Origin: a virus
DNA length: 61,488 bases
IMG/VR virus record: IMGVR_UViG_3300031825_000010
Coordinates: 1 to 61,488 of that record
Direction: 5' to 3' (one strand)
Numbering within the stretch: the first letter of the stretch is position 1; every line of letters begins with the position of its first letter. The translations under genes were made by a program, and so were the position numbers. The notes beneath the pieces are model-generated. The model saw only the letters and a program-made list of their open reading frames with translations, was not told the origin of the DNA and searched no databases. Shown one piece after another: positions 6,715 through 12,883 of this stretch.

Positions 6715-8880
6715 ATGAACGGATTAGCAGAAGTGAAAACTGAAAAGACGGTCGCCGTTCTTTATGGCGGAGCTGGTGGATACAGCAAGGGAATTACTCA
6801 GTCAAAGTCTGAAATGTACGGAAAAGTGTACAACTTCAGAATGCTTTGCAGCATCGATTACGATCCCGTAGCGAATCACAATCATGATCTTTTGCTTGGC
6901 GATAATCTATCGGTGACCATGGACCTTTTTGATAGGGAGCAGTACATAGCATTCCATGGTCAGGAGCCGCCAGCAGATTGGAAGGAAACAACTGGTTGGG
7001 AAATATGGAACGCGTTTGGCCAAGAAGTTCCGGACCTCATTTTTCTAAGCCCACCATGTAAGGGGTTCAGCGGACTGTTGCCTAAGAAGTCGGCGGAATC
7101 GATGAAATACCAGGCGCTCAACAGACTCACGCTGCGCGGGCTTGAGTTGGTGTTAAAAGCATGCATTCGATACGGCGAAGACTTGCCATCATTTATTCAT
7201 TTCGAAAATGTGCCAAGGATCCAAACCAGAGGGAAAGACCTTCTCTCAAAGATTCTTAGGCTGCTTAAACGGTTTGGTTTTGAAACCAACATGCGGGCTG
7301 ATCATAACCTTGGGGAAATTGGCGGACTCGGGCAGAGCCGCCCCCGTTTCCTCATCCTTGCCCGGAATAAACAAAAGATTCCGAACTTTACGTACTTGCC
7401 GCCAAAGAAACGATTACGAACGATCGGGGAAATTATCGGACCGTTACCAATGCCGGGGGACACGGTTAGAGGCGGGAAGATGAACAGGCTGCCAATGCTT
7501 ACTCGAAAATCATGGGAACGTCTGGCCGTCATACCTGCAGGTGGGGATTGGAGAGATTTGAATAAATCCGATTGGCAAAACCTCCGACTTTTTCATGAAC
7601 CAAGAGGTGGCGGAGCGTGGGGAGTGCAGGCTTGGAATGAACCGGGAAAAGCCGTTATCGGCAATGCCAAAATACACGGAAGCAATGCCAGTGCGGCGGT
7701 CAGCGACCCGAGGTTAGGGCTTGACGGAAACGGTATGGCGAACATTTACCGGATGCAAAGATTCGAAGAAACCGCAACGTGTGTCACCGGAGCAGTAGGA
7801 CCAAGTAATGGCGCTCCATGCGTCTCTGACCCACGATTAAAAGAACGTGAAGGCAGGCATCCTGCAGTATACCGTATTGTTCGAGTGGACGAGCCTGCTC
7901 CTTGTGTAACCGGCACACGATTCGGAAGCGGAGCAATTGCCATTGCTGATCCATGCACTCATACGAAATTTAACCATGCATTTAAAGTCAGCGACTGGAA
8001 TGAAACAGGTGGAACAGTGGCCGGGGGAACAGGGCCATCGAGCGGAGCGCACGTCATAGCTGATCCGAGGTTTGACGAAAACAGTTCGATGTACAATGGC
8101 GGGTACAAGGTGACTGAATGGGATGAGGTAGGGGGAACCGTTACGACCGGTGGCAGTCCGAGCAGCGGAGCACATGTGATTGCCGATCCGAGAGTTAAGA
8201 CAGACCTCATGCCCGACAGCTACGGCGTACAGGATTGGGATGATACTGCCAAGACGGTACGGGGAGCATCTCGAATTATGAACTCTCCAGCTTCTATAAG
8301 CGATCCGAGAGTTAACGACCGACCAGGACGGTATACCGATCAATACCGAATGCAGGCGTTTGATGAAACGGCAGCGACCGTAACGGGAGTAACGGACATC
8401 CAAGCCGGGGCGCAGTTAATCGCGGACCCTAGAATGAATTGCTCACCGAGATCCGGAACAATGGGTGTTCAGGATTGGAACGAGCCGTCCGTAACGGTTA
8501 CTGGGAGCATGGACATTCACGCAGGAGAAGCAGCTGTAGCCGATCCGCGCATCCCGGACGAGAATGAACGATGCGTCATGGTCATTATTGCGGAAGATGG
8601 GACCTGGCACAGACCGCTTACAACATACGAACTCAGTCAGCTTCAGGGGTTCCCGACACACTTACCAGATGGCCGTCCGTTCCAGCTTGAGAAATGCAGT
8701 GATTCCAAGGCAAGGGAATACATCGGAAATGCTGTTCCGCCTGCAGCTGCTGAAGCAATGGGGAATGTAATCCTGACTGCAATCGCCATGGCCGAGGCTG
8801 GCATCACTTTTGAATTTGGTCATGAAGAAGTATGGGTTATGCCTCAAGGGGAACAACCTGAAATAACGATTCTACATTAA
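6715..8880 (+). CDS. DNA (cytosine-5) methyltransferase with an expanded, eight-fold repeated variable region
   Basis: Motifs: I LYGGAGG, IV SPPCKGFS, VI ENV, VIII QSRPRF, X GNAVPP. Eight ~40-aa repeats ending in DPR lie between motifs VIII and IX. Confidence 0.9.
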   Translation: MNGLAEVKTEKTVAVLYGGAGGYSKGITQSKSEMYGKVYNFRMLCSIDYDPVANHNHDLLLGDNLSVTMDLFDREQYIAFHGQEPPADWKETTGWEIWNAFGQEVPDLIFLSPPCKGFSGLLPKKSAESMKYQALNRLTLRGLELVLKACIRYGEDLPSFIHFENVPRIQTRGKDLLSKILRLLKRFGFETNMRADHNLGEIGGLGQSRPRFLILARNKQKIPNFTYLPPKKRLRTIGEIIGPLPMPGDTVRGGKMNRLPMLTRKSWERLAVIPAGGDWRDLNKSDWQNLRLFHEPRGGGAWGVQAWNEPGKAVIGNAKIHGSNASAAVSDPRLGLDGNGMANIYRMQRFEETATCVTGAVGPSNGAPCVSDPRLKEREGRHPAVYRIVRVDEPAPCVTGTRFGSGAIAIADPCTHTKFNHAFKVSDWNETGGTVAGGTGPSSGAHVIADPRFDENSSMYNGGYKVTEWDEVGGTVTTGGSPSSGAHVIADPRVKTDLMPDSYGVQDWDDTAKTVRGASRIMNSPASISDPRVNDRPGRYTDQYRMQAFDETAATVTGVTDIQAGAQLIADPRMNCSPRSGTMGVQDWNEPSVTVTGSMDIHAGEAAVADPRIPDENERCVMVIIAEDGTWHRPLTTYELSQLQGFPTHLPDGRPFQLEKCSDSKAREYIGNAVPPAAAEAMGNVILTAIAMAEAGITFEFGHEEVWVMPQGEQPEITILH

Positions 8881-8897
8881 GGAAAGGCGGTACAGAA

Positions 8898-9896
8898 ATG
8901 AGTGATAAAAGCAAGATCGAATGGACAGATGCTACGTGGAACCCGGTCACCGGATGTACGAAGGTGTCGGAAGGCTGCCGGAATTGCTACGCTCTTACTT
9001 TTGCGGAACGGTTTCGCGGGACACCCGGGCATTATTTCGAAAATGGATTCGATATCACGCTTCGGCCTAATAAAATGCTGGAACCACTGAAGTGGCGAAA
9101 AGCGAAGAAAATTTTTGTGAACAGCATGAGTGACTTGTTCCATCCGGAAGTACCGGACGATTTCATTGATCAAGTGTTCGGCGTTATTCTCGCAAATCAT
9201 GTCCTAGACCGGCAAGCCGAACACACATTTCAACTATTAACAAAACGGCCCGAACGCATGCAAGAATATCTCGGAGCCGGACCGGACGTACTGCTCGAAC
9301 GCTGGGGAGAATCACTCGACGGCGTTGTCATCATGGATAATCCGGATGTTTGTTTCTCCGAATATGTGGACCATTTCTTGGACAAAGATGAATTTTTCCC
9401 GCTGCCTAATCTCTGGATTGGCACCAGTGTCGAGAACCAGAAGGCAGCTGTCGAGCGAATACCGCATCTACTTATGACACCGGCGGATGTTCGGTTCCTG
9501 TCATGTGAACCATTACTCGGATCAGTTGATTTTTGGGATGTACCTAGTCCGAGAGACGGCCAACCGTTCGAGGTGCTTCAGCCGCTCGGATCGGATTGGT
9601 CAGGCATCAACTGGGTCATTGCTGGCGGTGAGAGCGGCCATGGAGCTCGTCCGGTTCATCCGGACTGGATTAGGTCTCTACGAGATCAATGTCAGGCTGC
9701 AGGTGTGCCGTTCTTCTTCAAACAATGGGGGGAATGGTGGCCATACCCCGATGAGATCAACAAAATGACGGTCAATCGAAACACAAAAGAAGGTGGGAAG
9801 GTCAAGCGCTTTGAGAATTGGTACTTCGAACGGAACGGCAAGAAAGCGGCTGGACGCATACTTGATGGGCAAACGTGGGACGAGTTGCCCCAATAA
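8898..9896 (+). CDS. Phage Gp37/Gp68-family (DUF5131) protein
   Basis: KIEWTDATWNPVTGCTKVSEGCRNCYA at the N-terminus and IAGGESG..RP near the C-terminus. Confidence 0.8.
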   Translation: MSDKSKIEWTDATWNPVTGCTKVSEGCRNCYALTFAERFRGTPGHYFENGFDITLRPNKMLEPLKWRKAKKIFVNSMSDLFHPEVPDDFIDQVFGVILANHVLDRQAEHTFQLLTKRPERMQEYLGAGPDVLLERWGESLDGVVIMDNPDVCFSEYVDHFLDKDEFFPLPNLWIGTSVENQKAAVERIPHLLMTPADVRFLSCEPLLGSVDFWDVPSPRDGQPFEVLQPLGSDWSGINWVIAGGESGHGARPVHPDWIRSLRDQCQAAGVPFFFKQWGEWWPYPDEINKMTVNRNTKEGGKVKRFENWYFERNGKKAAGRILDGQTWDELPQ

Positions 9897-9939
9897 AAAC
9901 AAAAGGAGCATAGAGGGGAATATTTATCCCTCTTGCTCC
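9895..9939 (-). terminator. Intrinsic terminator of the minus-strand XRE operon (hairpin between convergent genes)
   Basis: 12-bp stem GGAGCA(T)AGAGGG / CCCTCTTGCTCC. The U-tract is present only on the minus strand (plus-strand AAAAACAAAA). Confidence 0.6.
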
Positions 9940-9956
9940 TCAACAATGAACTAAGA

Positions 9957-10157
9957 TCATGATCGAAAATGAATTGAGACAGAATCTACTTTTGCAATTG
10001 TTTCTCCAGTTGCTGCATTCGCAATTGAAACATCATGGCCGACAACGCACTTCGAATCCAAGATATTTGTTATTAGTGACATGGCATGATCGGCTCCAAT
10101 TAATCCGCCAACCCATCTTCTTTGAACATCTTGAATTTCGTCAAATTTAGTTTTCAT
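9957..10157 (-). CDS. Hypothetical small protein co-transcribed with the XRE regulator
   Basis: 66-aa ORF overlapping the XRE gene end by 11 nt and followed by the terminator. Confidence 0.5.
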   Translation of the reverse strand: MKTKFDEIQDVQRRWVGGLIGADHAMSLITNILDSKCVVGHDVSIANAATGETIAKVDSVSIHFRS

Positions 10158-10374
10158 TTACGTCCTCCTCGGGAATATATTCAACAAGTTCATCAATCGA
10201 TTTAACGTTGAGAGCCCTTGCTATTTTTTCGAGATTTTCCGGTGACCACTGTTTAGCTTTGTTATTGACCATATCGCTCACAGTATTCGGTCTAATGCCC
10301 GTTGCAATGTGAAGCTTATACATAGACCATTCCGGTCGTTTCTCAAGTATCTTATCAATCTTTAATCGGATCAC
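10147..10374 (-). CDS. XRE-family helix-turn-helix transcriptional regulator
   Basis: MYKLHIATGIRPNTVSDMVNNKAKQWSPENLEKIARALNVKSIDELV. GTG start with SD GGAGGAGG. Confidence 0.8.
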   Translation of the reverse strand: MIRLKIDKILEKRPEWSMYKLHIATGIRPNTVSDMVNNKAKQWSPENLEKIARALNVKSIDELVEYIPEEDVNEN

Positions 10375-10395
10375 GTTATTACCTCCTCCGTTTCT

Positions 10396-10424
10396 AATGT
10401 AACAAAAAAAGTTTAACGAATCAA
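10396..10424 (-). promoter_or_regulatory. Putative sigma-A promoter of the XRE gene
   Basis: Minus strand reads TTGATT-17 nt-TACATT, upstream of the SD and GTG. Confidence 0.45.
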
Positions 10425-10434
10425 GTTAAAAGTA

Positions 10435-10463
10435 TTGACGCTTAACGAAATTCGTTATATTAT
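10435..10463 (+). promoter_or_regulatory. Putative promoter of the small-ORF/ribozyme operon with an embedded palindromic operator
   Basis: TTGACG-17 nt-TATTAT. The spacer contains the perfect palindrome TAACGAAATTCGTTA (10443-10457). Further TTAACGAA half-sites are nearby. Confidence 0.55.
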
Positions 10464-10502
10464 TAGTACAGACGATAAACGTTAAACGAAATGAGTTATT
10501 AA

Positions 10503-10697
10503 GTGGAGGGAATGACGATGATCTCAAAAGCGCTGCAAGCCGCTGGATATGATTGTGAACCGACGAGAGAGAACCTGATCGAATGCTTCATGGATTACAT
10601 TGCTGCAGGTTACTGGTCGAACTCAGATGATCTGATGGACGATTACAATTGCGGGTTGTTGACGGACAATCAAATCTGCCGGGCATTGATGCAGTAA
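10503..10697 (+). CDS. Hypothetical small protein (start 10503, 10512 or 10518)
   Basis: First ORF after the promoter, with SD GGAGGG. Confidence 0.5.
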   Translation: MEGMTMISKALQAAGYDCEPTRENLIECFMDYIAAGYWSNSDDLMDDYNCGLLTDNQICRALMQ

Positions 10698-10735
10698 TTA
10701 ATAAGCCTATAAGGGCAGGGAGGTATAAGGGGATT

Positions 10736-10957
10736 ATGGTCATAAAAGAAGATGGATATCAGCCCTACTTCCGCGCCTTCATATTACATCAGAGATTGAA
10801 GATAGGGGACGAGGTTACGGGTCATGAATACATCACCTGGAACATGAATAAATGGAGTGAGTGGCGGAAGCTAAATGGCATACCACAGCATTTCCCAGCA
10901 ACACCAGAACATCATCGCGCTTTTGGAAAATGGCTATTTGAGACAATCCCCGCCTGA
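10736..10957 (+). CDS. Hypothetical small protein (73 aa) whose stop codon lies in a hammerhead core
   Basis: ATG 10736 follows SD GGGAGG. The ORF ends ..ETIPA-TGA-TGA inside CUGAUGA. Confidence 0.55.
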   Translation: MVIKEDGYQPYFRAFILHQRLKIGDEVTGHEYITWNMNKWSEWRKLNGIPQHFPATPEHHRAFGKWLFETIPA

Positions 10958-11024
10958 TGATGACCGGAGGGAAACCGGTCGAAACCATCTCGTTGACTTC
11001 AACGAAATGGTCGCGGATATCCGC
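10947..11024 (+). ncRNA. Hammerhead ribozyme motif, type I topology (copy 1)
   Basis: CCGC-CUGAUGA(10954-60)-U-GACCGG/CCGGUC-GAAA(10981-84)-11-bp stem III-GUC|GCGG. Predicted cleavage is after 11012. Confidence 0.85.
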
Positions 11025-11047
11025 AAAAAAACTTGGGAGTGATAACA

Positions 11048-11191
11048 ATGCAAATAACATTCAAAGTTTCAATGGAAACCAAATCCGGGAAAGTGGTTTC
11101 GGGGATCGTGAAAGCAACCAATGAAAAGATGGCCCAGCTTATCGCCTCTAAGAAGTTTAAAGGGAACAAGAACATCACCGTTTCCGCCTGA
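11048..11191 (+). CDS. Hypothetical small protein (47 aa; absent from the ORF track because it is under 60 aa)
   Basis: SD GGGAG, then ATG 11048. MQITFKVSMETKSGKVV..NITVSA-TGA-TGA, with the stop inside the copy 2 core. Confidence 0.5.
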   Translation: MQITFKVSMETKSGKVVSGIVKATNEKMAQLIASKKFKGNKNITVSA

Positions 11192-11258
11192 TGATGGCTG
11201 GATGGACACCAGCCGAAACCATGTCGTTGCTTCTAACGATATGGTCGCGGATATCCGC
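11181..11258 (+). ncRNA. Hammerhead ribozyme motif, type I topology (copy 2)
   Basis: CCGC-CUGAUGA(11188-94)-U-GGCUGG/CCAGCC-GAAA(11215-18)-10-bp stem III-GUC|GCGG. Predicted cleavage is after 11246. Confidence 0.85.
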
Positions 11259-11280
11259 AACAAACAGAGGAGGGAATCAA

Positions 11281-11454
11281 ATGTACAATGTATCTTTCGA
11301 TGGCATTCAAACCAAACTGCAACGCGCATCGGAGAAAGAGGTTAAAAATTTCCTTTCGCTCTTCAACTGCAAACCGAGAGTCGAGGAAAATGTAGGCATC
11401 GTCGGAAAATGGATCAGCAAAGGTGGAAGGTATATTGATGTAACGTCCGCCTGA
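11281..11454 (+). CDS. Hypothetical small protein (57 aa)
   Basis: SD GGAGGG, then ATG 11281. Ends ..IDVTSA-TGA-TGA inside the copy 3 core. The upstream part of track ORF 11191..11454 overlaps ribozyme 2. Confidence 0.55.
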   Translation: MYNVSFDGIQTKLQRASEKEVKNFLSLFNCKPRVEENVGIVGKWISKGGRYIDVTSA

Positions 11455-11513
11455 TGAGTCTGGAGGGACACCGGACGAAAGACCGTCGTGATGACGGACT
11501 CGCGGATATCCGC
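11444..11513 (+). ncRNA. Hammerhead ribozyme motif, type I topology (copy 3, canonical core spacing)
   Basis: CCGC-CUGAUGA(11451-57)-GUCUGG/CCGGAC-GAAA(11477-80)-stem III-CUC|GCGG. Predicted cleavage is after 11501. Confidence 0.8.
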
Positions 11514-11617
11514 TTAACGTTCGCCAAGCACGGTGGACGCTATGATGGCCCGGTGCAATTCGGCCACTTTACATAGATGCTCTATGAAAATCAAATAAGA
11601 TCACGGAGGCAGAGAGA

Positions 11618-11809
11618 ATGAAAGTATGGGTAACTGTCTATGAGTACAAGGGGTATAAAATCGAAGTCCTAAACGGTGCTGGAATCAACGATCCCATGAA
11701 TTACAGAACGAACCCTCCACTTCCCGGACAAGATCATGATTGCAATTGTTTGGCTTGTACTTTCTCAACGATCGGAAATGCAATCGAAGCCATCGACAAA
11801 TTGAATTAA
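11618..11809 (+). CDS. Hypothetical small protein
   Basis: SD GGAGG, then ATG; 63 aa. Confidence 0.5.
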   Translation: MKVWVTVYEYKGYKIEVLNGAGINDPMNYRTNPPLPGQDHDCNCLACTFSTIGNAIEAIDKLN

Positions 11810-11811
11810 GC

Positions 11812-11832
11812 TCAGGAAAATTTTCCTTACCT
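11812..11832. repeat. Conserved palindromic element, copy A (TCAGGAAAATTTTCCTTACCT)
   Basis: Near-identical 21-mers occur at 18796-18816, 30556-30576 and 42003-42023. The core AGGAAAATTTTCCT is a perfect palindrome. Confidence 0.8.
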
Positions 11833-11853
11833 CATATGAAGGGAGAGATAAGA

Positions 11854-12033
11854 ATGATTAACCTCTCAGAATTGGACAAGCAACCAGCAGAAGTACAAGA
11901 GGCTGCCGCGTTTTATGCATCGTTCGGGGTAACGACAACGGCCTACACCAAGGAAGAACGCGAACACTTCTACACGATCCTGGAGAACGCCGGATTGATT
12001 GAGAAGGTCGGTGAGTTCTATGGAACAAACTAA
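11854..12033 (+). CDS. Hypothetical small protein (59 aa)
   Basis: SD GGGAGAG, then ATG 11854, 22 nt after palindrome copy A. Confidence 0.5.
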   Translation: MINLSELDKQPAEVQEAAAFYASFGVTTTAYTKEEREHFYTILENAGLIEKVGEFYGTN

Positions 12034-12199
12034 GGAACCAGATCATTCCCGCTGCCTAGTTTTCCGCCGAAAGCTTAAAAATCCGCACCACCGCCGGAGC
12101 GGAATAGGTCCAAAATGTAAGCAGAAACAACATGCACGCAGAGTTGAAAAAGCAACACAGATCGAATTCAATTTCTAAACGGAAGGGTGGGGCGAAACG

Positions 12200-12883
12200 A
12201 TGTCTCATCAAACATTTTGGAAGCCAGAAAAACAAGTGAAGGAAAAACCGCGTAATAGTCTCCTTAACCGGAAACCGAAGGAGAGAAAGGAAGTTCCAGA
12301 GTGGAAGAGGGGCATTCTTTCGCATCATCTCTCCAATCCATCGAGAGCAGATCGAGCAGAGTTCCCGAGAGATGTAATCGCGGCGGCTATCGAACGGTCG
12401 GGCGGAATCTGCCAGTACTGCAAGAAGGTTCCCTGCACAACGACGCATCACGTCAAGGGTCGCGGCGGGAGGGATGGACGGGGAGTCCTCTCCAATGCCT
12501 ATCGTGTTTGCGGAAAATGTCATATTGAGATCGAAGGGAGCGAAGAAAAGAAACAAGAGATCATCGAATTATATCGGCAATTATACGGCGAGTTCTTCTG
12601 GTTTGATCAGCAAGATTGGGATGAATACGGGCGCAAACAAGCGGCATCACGAACGGCAGAGGAAGAACAAAAACAACGCATGGAACGGATTAACCCTGTG
12701 ATTGATTTGTTGGCAGCGGCGGCTGGAAGAAGATTAAAAGCCGGAGAAATCCGTTTGATTGATGGGATGGACGATAGAGAAGTTGCAATATTCGCAAAAC
12801 TCATGTCCGATGTTGTTTCTGCTGGTTCAGATCCGGTTAAGCCAAAAGGTTCTGAAGCATATGGACATTATTTTGAAGATTAA
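12200..12883 (+). CDS. HNH-nuclease domain protein
   Basis: GGICQYCKKVPCTTTHHVKGRGG..VCGKCHIEIE shows the CxxC..HH..CxxCH arrangement. Confidence 0.7.
   Translation: MSHQTFWKPEKQVKEKPRNSLLNRKPKERKEVPEWKRGILSHHLSNPSRADRAEFPRDVIAAAIERSGGICQYCKKVPCTTTHHVKGRGGRDGRGVLSNAYRVCGKCHIEIEGSEEKKQEIIELYRQLYGEFFWFDQQDWDEYGRKQAASRTAEEEQKQRMERINPVIDLLAAAAGRRLKAGEIRLIDGMDDREVAIFAKLMSDVVSAGSDPVKPKGSEAYGHYFED

Follow-up and report, generated by a model that had tools for sequence, protein, structure and literature searches.

Clusters of hammerhead ribozymes are known from prophage genomes. Passages of Perreault et al. 2011 (PMC3088659) and of a 2019 review (PMC6765202) report that such clustered hammerheads cleave in vitro and in E. 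coli, and propose that they process polycistronic transcripts. In the clusters described in the former, hammerheads on the same strand flank single genes or small groups of them, and a pseudoknot connects loop II with the stem I region. Processing into single-gene mRNAs was proposed there, and circular or spliced products were raised as an idea and not observed (PMC3088659). The biological role of the many phage hammerheads was still described as unproven in the 2019 review (PMC6765202). Here, an array of three hammerheads (HH1, HH2 and HH3) was analysed in IMG/VR virus record IMGVR_UViG_3300031825_000010, the whole stretch of 61,488 nucleotides (nt) being called the window. The array belongs to the known prophage hammerhead clusters. 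It differs from the clusters of 2011 in that it is carried by an uncultivated phage of Paenibacillaceae type and bounds very short units of 234 and 255 nt; unlike in the published account, the stop codons of the window lie inside the catalytic core and a hairpin containing a stem I strand can form at the 5' end of each product. The evidence set out below makes it likely that a polycistronic phage transcript processes itself into linear single-gene mRNAs, each with a hairpin at its 5'-OH end and a hammerhead-folded 3' end.

The sequence was read over positions 10500-12100. The three hammerheads lie within 556 nt on the plus strand and flank two small open reading frames (ORFs), ORF B and ORF C (Table 1). 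From 5' to 3', each copy consists of CCGC, CUGAUGA, an optional U, stem II, GAAA, stem III, UC, the cut site and GCGGAUAUCCGC. The conserved core is present in all three, with C3 U4 G5 A6 N7 G8 A9, G12 A13 A14, the A15.1-U16.1 pair and H17 at the cut. Stem I is CCGC/GCGG in every copy and the first 12 nt are identical in all three 3' products; GCGGATATCCGC occurs exactly three times in the window, always at a ribozyme site. Stem II has 6 base pairs (bp) in every copy and is closed by a 7-nt loop of the form A-N-G-G-A-M-A (AGGGAAA in HH1, AUGGACA and AGGGACA in the others). Its pairings are GACCGG/CCGGUC in HH1 and GGCUGG/CCAGCC and GUCUGG/CCGGAC in the other copies, with compensatory changes between them, and stem III likewise varies among the three through compensatory changes. 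In HH1, stem III comprises 12 pairs with one C.A mismatch and the core CUGAUGA is followed by the extra U. HH3 is without this U, has an A.A mismatch at 15.3-16.3, and its stem I can be extended to 6 pairs. The extra U, located between A9 and G10.1 in HH1 and HH2, is common to most of the listed class members from viral contigs. An additional A or U is tolerated at this position and is known from some hammerheads of viroids and satellites. A type-II reading, in which GCGG-loop-CCGC would form a closed stem I, was rejected because CUGAUGA does not come after the hairpin.

The identity of the elements was evaluated with a covariance model, R1, built from 30 distinct hammerheads of other viral contigs, the window being left out. 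Its seed sequences were drawn from a pattern search with the same stem I, which returned more than 120 viral contigs. When both strands of the 61-kb window were scanned with filters off, the best match after the three ribozymes reached 11.6 bits. A loose hammerhead pattern matched the three sites and one unrelated position, against 0.26 matches expected from shuffled sequences. In a second alignment, A2, composed of 19 distinct relatives that share the hairpin GCGG-AUAU-CCGC, 96.4% of the cells in modelled pairs were paired and 10 pairs displayed compensatory change. None of 500 shuffles matched this pairing level, and slid controls paired at 26-42%. Stem I is invariant within this AUAU-hairpin subclass; in the wider class it covaries, the variants being CCGC, CCCAC and CCCGU. 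The core is enclosed by three helices, of which stems II and III end in loops and stem I is open, and covariation supports their pairing. By every available sequence-based test, the three elements are real hammerheads.

An earlier note on this DNA, made from the letters of the sequence, had described three hammerheads with a shared stem I and diverged stems II and III. The sequence bore this out to the base. The limits it gave for the two ribozyme-bounded units, 234 and 255 nt long, proved exact, and one Shine-Dalgarno site with one small ORF was indeed found in each unit.

Table 1. Features of the hammerhead array and its surroundings, with positions in the window (aa, amino acids).
Feature	Positions	Strand	Remarks
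HH1 hammerhead, type I	10950-11016	+	cuts between C11012 and G11013; model R1 61.1 bits, E 7e-16
HH2 hammerhead, type I	11184-11250	+	cuts between C11246 and G11247; model R1 64.5 bits, E 6e-17
HH3 hammerhead, type I	11447-11505	+	cuts between C11501 and G11502; model R1 48.9 bits, E 4e-12
Hairpin GCGG-AUAU-CCGC	11013-11024	+	5' terminus of the predicted HH1 3' product; 5' arm supplied by the 3' strand of stem I
Unit 1, 234 nt	11013-11246	+	5' hairpin, A-rich leader, Shine-Dalgarno site, ORF B, HH2 body
ORF B, 47 aa	11048-11191	+	ATG 11048; Shine-Dalgarno GGGAG 11035-11039; stop inside HH2 core; among the source-record calls
Unit 2, 255 nt	11247-11501	+	5' hairpin 11247-11258, leader, Shine-Dalgarno site, ORF C, HH3 body
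ORF C, 57 aa, orphan	11281-11454	+	ATG 11281; Shine-Dalgarno GAGGAGG 11267-11273; stop inside HH3 core
Hairpin GCGG-AUAU-CCGC, third copy	11502-11513	+	5' terminus of the predicted HH3 3' product
Conserved module after HH3	11514-11597	+	covarying stem-loops, then CUUUACAUAGAUGCUCUAUGAAAAUCAAAUA
ORF D, 63 aa, first gene past the array	11618-11809	+	homologue after a single hammerhead in locus L331
Promoter-like site TTGACG, 17 nt, TATTAT	10435-10463	+	10/12 consensus matches; putative function
ORF0, 59 aa, first small gene of the putative operon	10518-10697	+	among the source-record calls; codon score 10 bits; no ribozyme after it
ORF A, 73 aa, uncertain gene	10736-10957	+	stop is U4-G5-A6 of the HH1 core

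The gene order was found to be ORF0, ORF A, HH1, ORF B, HH2, ORF C, HH3, a conserved non-coding module, ORF D and ORF E. ORFs A, B and C all end in ..xCC GCC UGA UGA, their stop codon being U4-G5-A6 of the CUGAUGA core, a feature absent from the earlier note. Placed within the core, the stop codon would stay with the upstream cleavage product. The distance from the ribozyme end to the next start codon is approximately 35 nt, and 116 nt after HH3. Only a block of about 95 nt, comprising hammerhead, hairpin and leader, is repeated, while the units hold different ORFs. The codon usage of ORF B and ORF C is coding-like, at about 15 bits each (15.5 and 15.2 bits, respectively); as a reference, 50-codon chunks of this phage score 13 ± 6 bits in frame and -6 ± 6 bits out of frame. 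A search of ORF C in 5.8 billion proteins returned only ORF C itself. When the six small ORFs were compared by tblastn with all fetched loci, relatives were detected for ORF D and ORF E only, and a blastn search of 10400-12100 against 50,697 phage records gave no match.

In order to place the array within its class, viral contigs were scanned with three stem I sequences, CCGC/GCGG, CCAC/GUGG and CCGU/ACGG, which brought between 93 and more than 120 viral contigs apiece. Approximately 220 distinct hammerheads emerged when all fetched loci were screened with a descriptor, and placement was counted in loci L001-L327. An upstream ORF stops at -10 to -7 from C3, abutting stem I, in 84 of 200 distinct hammerheads, and at the core U4-G5-A6 itself in 29 of the 200. 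Past the cut site, the next start codon with a Shine-Dalgarno site in front of it lies at a median of 44 nt. The phage class of type-I hammerheads consists of gene-junction modules. Larger arrays than that of the window were also observed, namely in L036 (5679-10566, 8 hammerheads), L048 (695-3341, 6) and L052 (685-2372, 4), and several hammerheads of L036 and L048 are spaced by about 240-350 nt.

A second feature of the class concerns the bases just past the cut. In 116 of 221 distinct hammerheads, the cleavage-site arm is followed 3-16 nt downstream by a copy of the 5' strand of stem I, compared with 11 of 221 for a control region. A GCGG arm is followed by CCGC in 67 of 100 hammerheads and a GUGGG arm by CCCAC in 23 of 51, the strands of other classes being found there at most twice; an ACGGG arm is followed by CCCG(U). 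As judged from these sequence comparisons, a hairpin that would form at the 5' end of the 3' product and that covaries with stem I is a usual feature of the class. According to a passage of Perreault et al. 2011 (PMC3088659), a pseudoknot between loop II and the tail is needed for fast cleavage. A complement of at least 4 nt between loop II and the tail was present in 130 of 224 hammerheads and in 27 of 224 for the control region; pairings of loop II with the tail just 3' of stem I include UGGC:GCCA, GGUU:AACC and GGAUA:UAUCC. In the window, GGA of loop II can pair with UCC of the hairpin, followed by a mismatch and one A-U pair, with a predicted energy of -1.7 to -1.9 kcal/mol. The isolated hairpin was predicted at -5.0 kcal/mol, and in the minimal segment, before cleavage, the hammerhead fold and the hairpin fold are within 0.6 kcal/mol of each other. 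The hairpin cannot coexist with the active fold, since both use GCGG and the CC of the pseudoknot partner.

These findings can be assembled into a sequence of events. A promoter near 10435-10463 would probably drive one long transcript through the small genes. On this transcript, the ribozymes would stand at the junctions between ORF A and ORF B, between ORF B and ORF C and between ORF C and the downstream region, each starting in the last codons of the preceding gene. The active fold would comprise a stem I of 4-6 bp (CCGC/GCGG), stems II and III, and the pseudoknot in which GGA of loop II pairs with UCC just 3' of stem I. Linear pieces would result from cleavage. The upstream piece is expected to keep its stop codon and to carry, after the folded stems II and III, a terminal 2',3'-cyclic phosphate, and the downstream piece would begin with a 5'-OH. 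The GCGG arm would then switch to the CCGC eight bases downstream, generating the GCGG-AUAU-CCGC hairpin, because stem I and the pseudoknot would now bridge two molecules while the hairpin stays within one. Such a switch would break both contacts with the upstream piece, so that the product should be released and the reverse (ligation) reaction blocked. A paired 5' end would also resist RNases that depend on the 5' end. The predicted outcome is a set of mRNAs of 234 and 255 nt, each with a single gene and stabilised on its own.

Several observations weigh against this proposal. No match at the gathering threshold was found in the window for the Rfam hammerhead families (RF00163, RF00008, RF02276, RF03152 and others), the sole sub-threshold match being that of HH3 to RAGATH-1-hammerhead, at 17 bits where 56 are required. 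This null result says little, because Rfam misses every tested member of the phage class. In nine other phage loci (L033, L018, L006, L054, L048, L036, L052, L330 and L340), examined together with the window, Rfam 15 at gathering thresholds recognised none of approximately 25 clear type-I pseudoknot hammerheads, which score 37-73 bits with the model built in this analysis. The silence of Rfam is a gap in the model coverage of an abundant phage class and not evidence against a hammerhead. Other points concern the ribozymes and their folding. HH1 and HH3 contain one stem III mismatch each, neither of which touches the core. The pseudoknot of the window is weak, having three pairs, a mismatch and one pair compared with five pairs (GGAUA:UAUCC) in close relatives. 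With longer flanks, RNAfold preferred the hairpin over stem I even before cleavage (P of stem I at most 0.06), and the hairpin could therefore slow cleavage and not only trap the product. With regard to the genes, ORF A is doubtful, with a weak codon score of 6.9 bits, and in homologue searches covering ORF A and ORF C no relative was found for either. Finally, cleavage in this phage is predicted from the consensus, and the suggested protective role of the hairpin draws on general knowledge of 5'-terminal stem-loops and of RNase J and RNase E.

The surroundings of the array are those of a phage genome. In Pfam searches, the window showed a replication module at 0.1-9.9 kb, portal and tail genes, a small terminase at 18.8 kb and, at 49.6-52 kb, an integrase together with a repressor. 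It represents a siphovirus-like, temperate phage of Paenibacillaceae type. All genomes carrying a hammerhead with the exact GCGG-AUAU-CCGC hairpin belong to Paenibacillus or Cohnella. The promoter-like site points away from a Cro/C1-type helix-turn-helix (HTH) gene located on the minus strand (10147-10374), and its region is 82% identical in the syntenic contig described below. It is likely the start of the ribozyme-bearing operon, its function being putative. No plus-strand terminator was found in 9800-12400. The source record, metagenome contig ERZ27250632:k141_570001, contains two gene calls, 10875-11042 (55 aa, in place of ORF A) and 11454-11576 (40 aa), that run through HH1 and HH3; these calls are probably artefacts of unrecognised ribozymes.

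The region was then compared with related loci. All 18 other distinct loci with the exact hairpin (8 from genomes, 7 from metagenomes and 3 viral) carry a single ribozyme, and no further array of the AUAU-hairpin subclass was found in the metagenome and genome scans, only single ribozymes. In metagenome contig FWWL01000590.1 (L340), positions 7336-9408 are syntenic with 10163-12816 of the window, in blocks corresponding to 10163-10518, 11447-11597 and 12175-12816. The HTH gene, the promoter, HH3 with its downstream module and a gene of 227 aa are common to both. Between the shared flanks, L340 holds unrelated small ORFs and is without HH1, HH2 and ORF D. The ORF upstream of its single HH3 equivalent again ends on the core UGA. 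HH1 and HH2, with their ORFs, belong to a variable cassette region, because L340 has other small ORFs and, of the three ribozymes, just the HH3 equivalent. A prophage of Paenibacillus qinlingensis (L336) carries a single hammerhead, with which HH1 shares 84% and HH2 80% identity. The homologue of ORF D, 52% identical, lies directly 3' of a single hammerhead in Paenibacillus ginsengihumi (L331).

In the module that follows HH3, a short spacer precedes one or two stem-loops, with (U/G)GCA in the loop, after which comes CUUUACAUAGAUGCUCUAUGAAAAUCAAAUA. It was also found 3' of the single hammerhead in 11 related loci (L328, L329, L330, L332, L334, L335, L336, L339, L340, L341 and L344), and five of the six pairs of its stem show compensatory change. 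No Rfam family matched the module, and a pistol-like ribozyme, considered as a candidate, had no Rfam support. When compared with a sigma-70 promoter, a -35-like TTTACA is conserved and the -10 element is weak and variable. The module could be a phage-specific promoter or an RNA element.

Three other explanations of the array were weighed. The earlier note had considered excised and possibly circular mRNAs conceivable. In that proposal, the 5'-OH GCGG end of a unit docks in the unit's own 3' hammerhead and is joined by the reverse ribozyme reaction or by a host RtcB-type ligase, giving circular, translatable mRNAs of 234 and 255 nt. If true, a DNA phage would produce small, exonuclease-proof, translatable circular mRNAs, which would be striking. 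The docking geometry on which the idea was built stands. Stem I and the 12-nt tail are identical at the three sites, making the unit ends compatible with ligation, and docking is formally possible because all 3' products start with the same 12 nt; the 5' end of a unit would rebuild the downstream stem I and pseudoknot exactly. The predicted junction is ..AACGAUAUGGUC joined to GCGGAUAUCCGCAAAAAAACUUGG for a circle of unit 1, and ..GAUGACGGACUC joined to GCGGAUAUCCGCAACAAACAGAGG for one of unit 2, and the Shine-Dalgarno site, the ORF and the stop codon would all be kept intact. The 5'-OH and 2',3'-cyclic phosphate ends of hammerhead products are substrates of RtcB-type ligases. Published passages describe the circularisation of metazoan retrozyme RNAs bounded by type-I hammerheads (PMC7229834); for engineered RNAs of 83-103 nt flanked by hammerheads, circularisation of 6.7-9.5% in E. 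coli is cited in PMC11592204. The circles themselves, on the other hand, are not supported. For the excised units, RNAfold gave a P of 0.99 to the conserved 5' hairpin, which holds the docking strand, and of 0.0003-0.005 to docking with CCGC of the 3' ribozyme. The earlier note had itself supposed that GCGGAUAUCCGC folds into its own hairpin, capping the 5' end and disfavouring religation, and the frequency of such hairpins in the class (116/221, control 11/221) speaks for it. A rod-like or branched fold joining the unit ends was not found; the ends are not brought together, the stable structure of the units is the 5' hairpin with stems II and III, and the fold z-scores (-1.75 for unit 1 and -0.66 for unit 2) are not those of unusually structured RNAs. 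Identical repeated non-coding monomers were not found either, as the two units carry different coding-like ORFs. Moreover, a complete active hammerhead inside any circle would recut it. The 18 other hairpin loci contain no bounded unit because each carries a single ribozyme, and the same is true of the ribozyme number in the syntenic L340. In other phage arrays, stem I differs between the two ends in 21 of 46 distinct units of up to 1500 nt. The lengths of these 46 units are spread over the residues modulo 3 as 15/11/20, without bias towards multiples of 3, so that the multiple-of-3 length of both window units was rejected as a signal and is probably the coincidence that the note had suspected. 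Endless rolling-circle translation, which it had also argued against, was rejected on the ground that every frame of each circularised unit holds stop codons. No RNA ligase or RtcB domain was detected among the 40 window ORFs scanned with Pfam, and the circular or spliced products raised by Perreault et al. 2011 were not detected in the work described there (PMC3088659). The circular-mRNA idea is not supported, and nothing in this analysis favours circles. Joining of docked unit ends into translatable circles is accordingly judged very unlikely. Circles at a low level are possible; the version in which some of the units become circles inside the host, through an RtcB-type ligase or the reverse ribozyme, and the hairpin keeps the rebuilt hammerhead off in the circle, is given equally little credence.

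The near balance of the two folds bears on another explanation, in which cleavage is regulated and tunes expression. Translation of the upstream ORF would set how often the transcript is cut, as ribosomes terminating on the core UGA unfold the 5' half of the ribozyme and the downstream CCGC competes for GCGG; each cut would uncouple the decay of neighbouring genes and lead to unequal expression. In most of the class the upstream ORF stops within the core or directly against stem I, and the stop is within the core in L340 as in each of the three window copies. Such control fits the near-equal energies of the two folds and the dominance of the hairpin fold with longer flanks, and regulated cutting with differential stability is raised in passages of Perreault et al. 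2011 (PMC3088659) and of the 2019 review (PMC6765202). No ligand-binding or sensor element was found, however, and the tight spacing of stop codon and ribozyme could merely reflect the compactness of phage genomes. Regulation overlaps with self-processing into linear single-gene mRNAs more than it excludes it, and as the principal explanation it appears rather unlikely. It may also be asked whether the repeat of about 95 nt is mainly a recombination boundary for swapping small gene cassettes between phages, RNA cleavage being secondary or vestigial. The comparison with L340, in which the flanks and the HH3 module are shared, the small ORFs differ and HH1, HH2 and ORF D are missing, would suit this explanation, and so would the identity of HH1 (84%) and HH2 (80%) to the single hammerhead of L336 and the orphan status of ORF C. 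A pure DNA repeat, in contrast, needs no intact core, no compensatory changes in stems II and III and no hairpin arm that covaries with stem I, and the copies have diverged exactly where the RNA structure tolerates change. A role mainly in recombination is most improbable. Self-processing of the transcript into linear mRNAs, each carrying one gene, is the explanation retained.

The array can be compared with viroid-like RNAs and retrozymes. As described in passages on these systems (PMC7229834, PMC5680766, PMC7761336), type-I or type-III hammerheads set the unit length, as in the window, and the resulting 5'-OH and 2',3'-cyclic phosphate ends can be joined by tRNA ligase or RtcB. Their units are reported there to be non-coding, to be identical monomers or bounded by a split repeat, and to adopt rod-like or branched folds that join the ends, the ribozyme being switched off. 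The units of the window are instead distinct cassettes of a Shine-Dalgarno site and an ORF in the operon of a DNA phage; they are not rod-like, and their 5' end is predicted to be held in a hairpin.

With respect to that hairpin, a likeness exists to bacterial leader RNAs. The 5'-terminal stem-loops of the ompA, ermC and aprE leaders, which start no more than a few nucleotides from the 5' end, stabilise bacterial mRNAs by blocking RNase E and RNase J when these act in a 5'-end-dependent manner. The 5' ends of these leaders are made by transcription initiation and carry a triphosphate. In the window the hairpin also stands at the 5' end and would block such attack, but the predicted end is a 5'-OH made by a ribozyme.

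The available text of Perreault et al. 2011 (PMC3088659) does not mention stop codons or Shine-Dalgarno sites, and its passages on hairpins and alternative structures omit a product hairpin. In a literature search covering open-access full text, the hairpin covarying with stem I and the tight link to the stop codon may be new. The locus offers a compact and clean test case, with three ribozymes, two very short single-gene units, core stop codons and a predicted post-cleavage hairpin. The patterns of the class, namely the covarying hairpin, the stop-codon overlap and the distance of about 44 nt to the next start, make the idea of polycistronic processing specific and testable.

The engineered insulator RiboJ resembles the arrangement in function and order. 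As described in passages of PMC7536230, its hammerhead removes upstream RNA, and a hairpin lies between the cut and the Shine-Dalgarno site. RiboJ consists of a hammerhead and a 23-nt hairpin upstream of the ribosome-binding site; it was engineered from a type-III satellite-RNA ribozyme, to which the hairpin was separately added (PMC7536230). In the model used there, a parameter b = 2 (citing Clifton 2018) expresses that uncleaved mRNA is degraded faster than cleaved mRNA. Unlike in RiboJ, the hairpin and the active ribozyme of the window are mutually exclusive, because the 5' arm of the hairpin is the stem I strand itself. With this difference, the arrangement is a natural counterpart of the synthetic RiboJ insulator.

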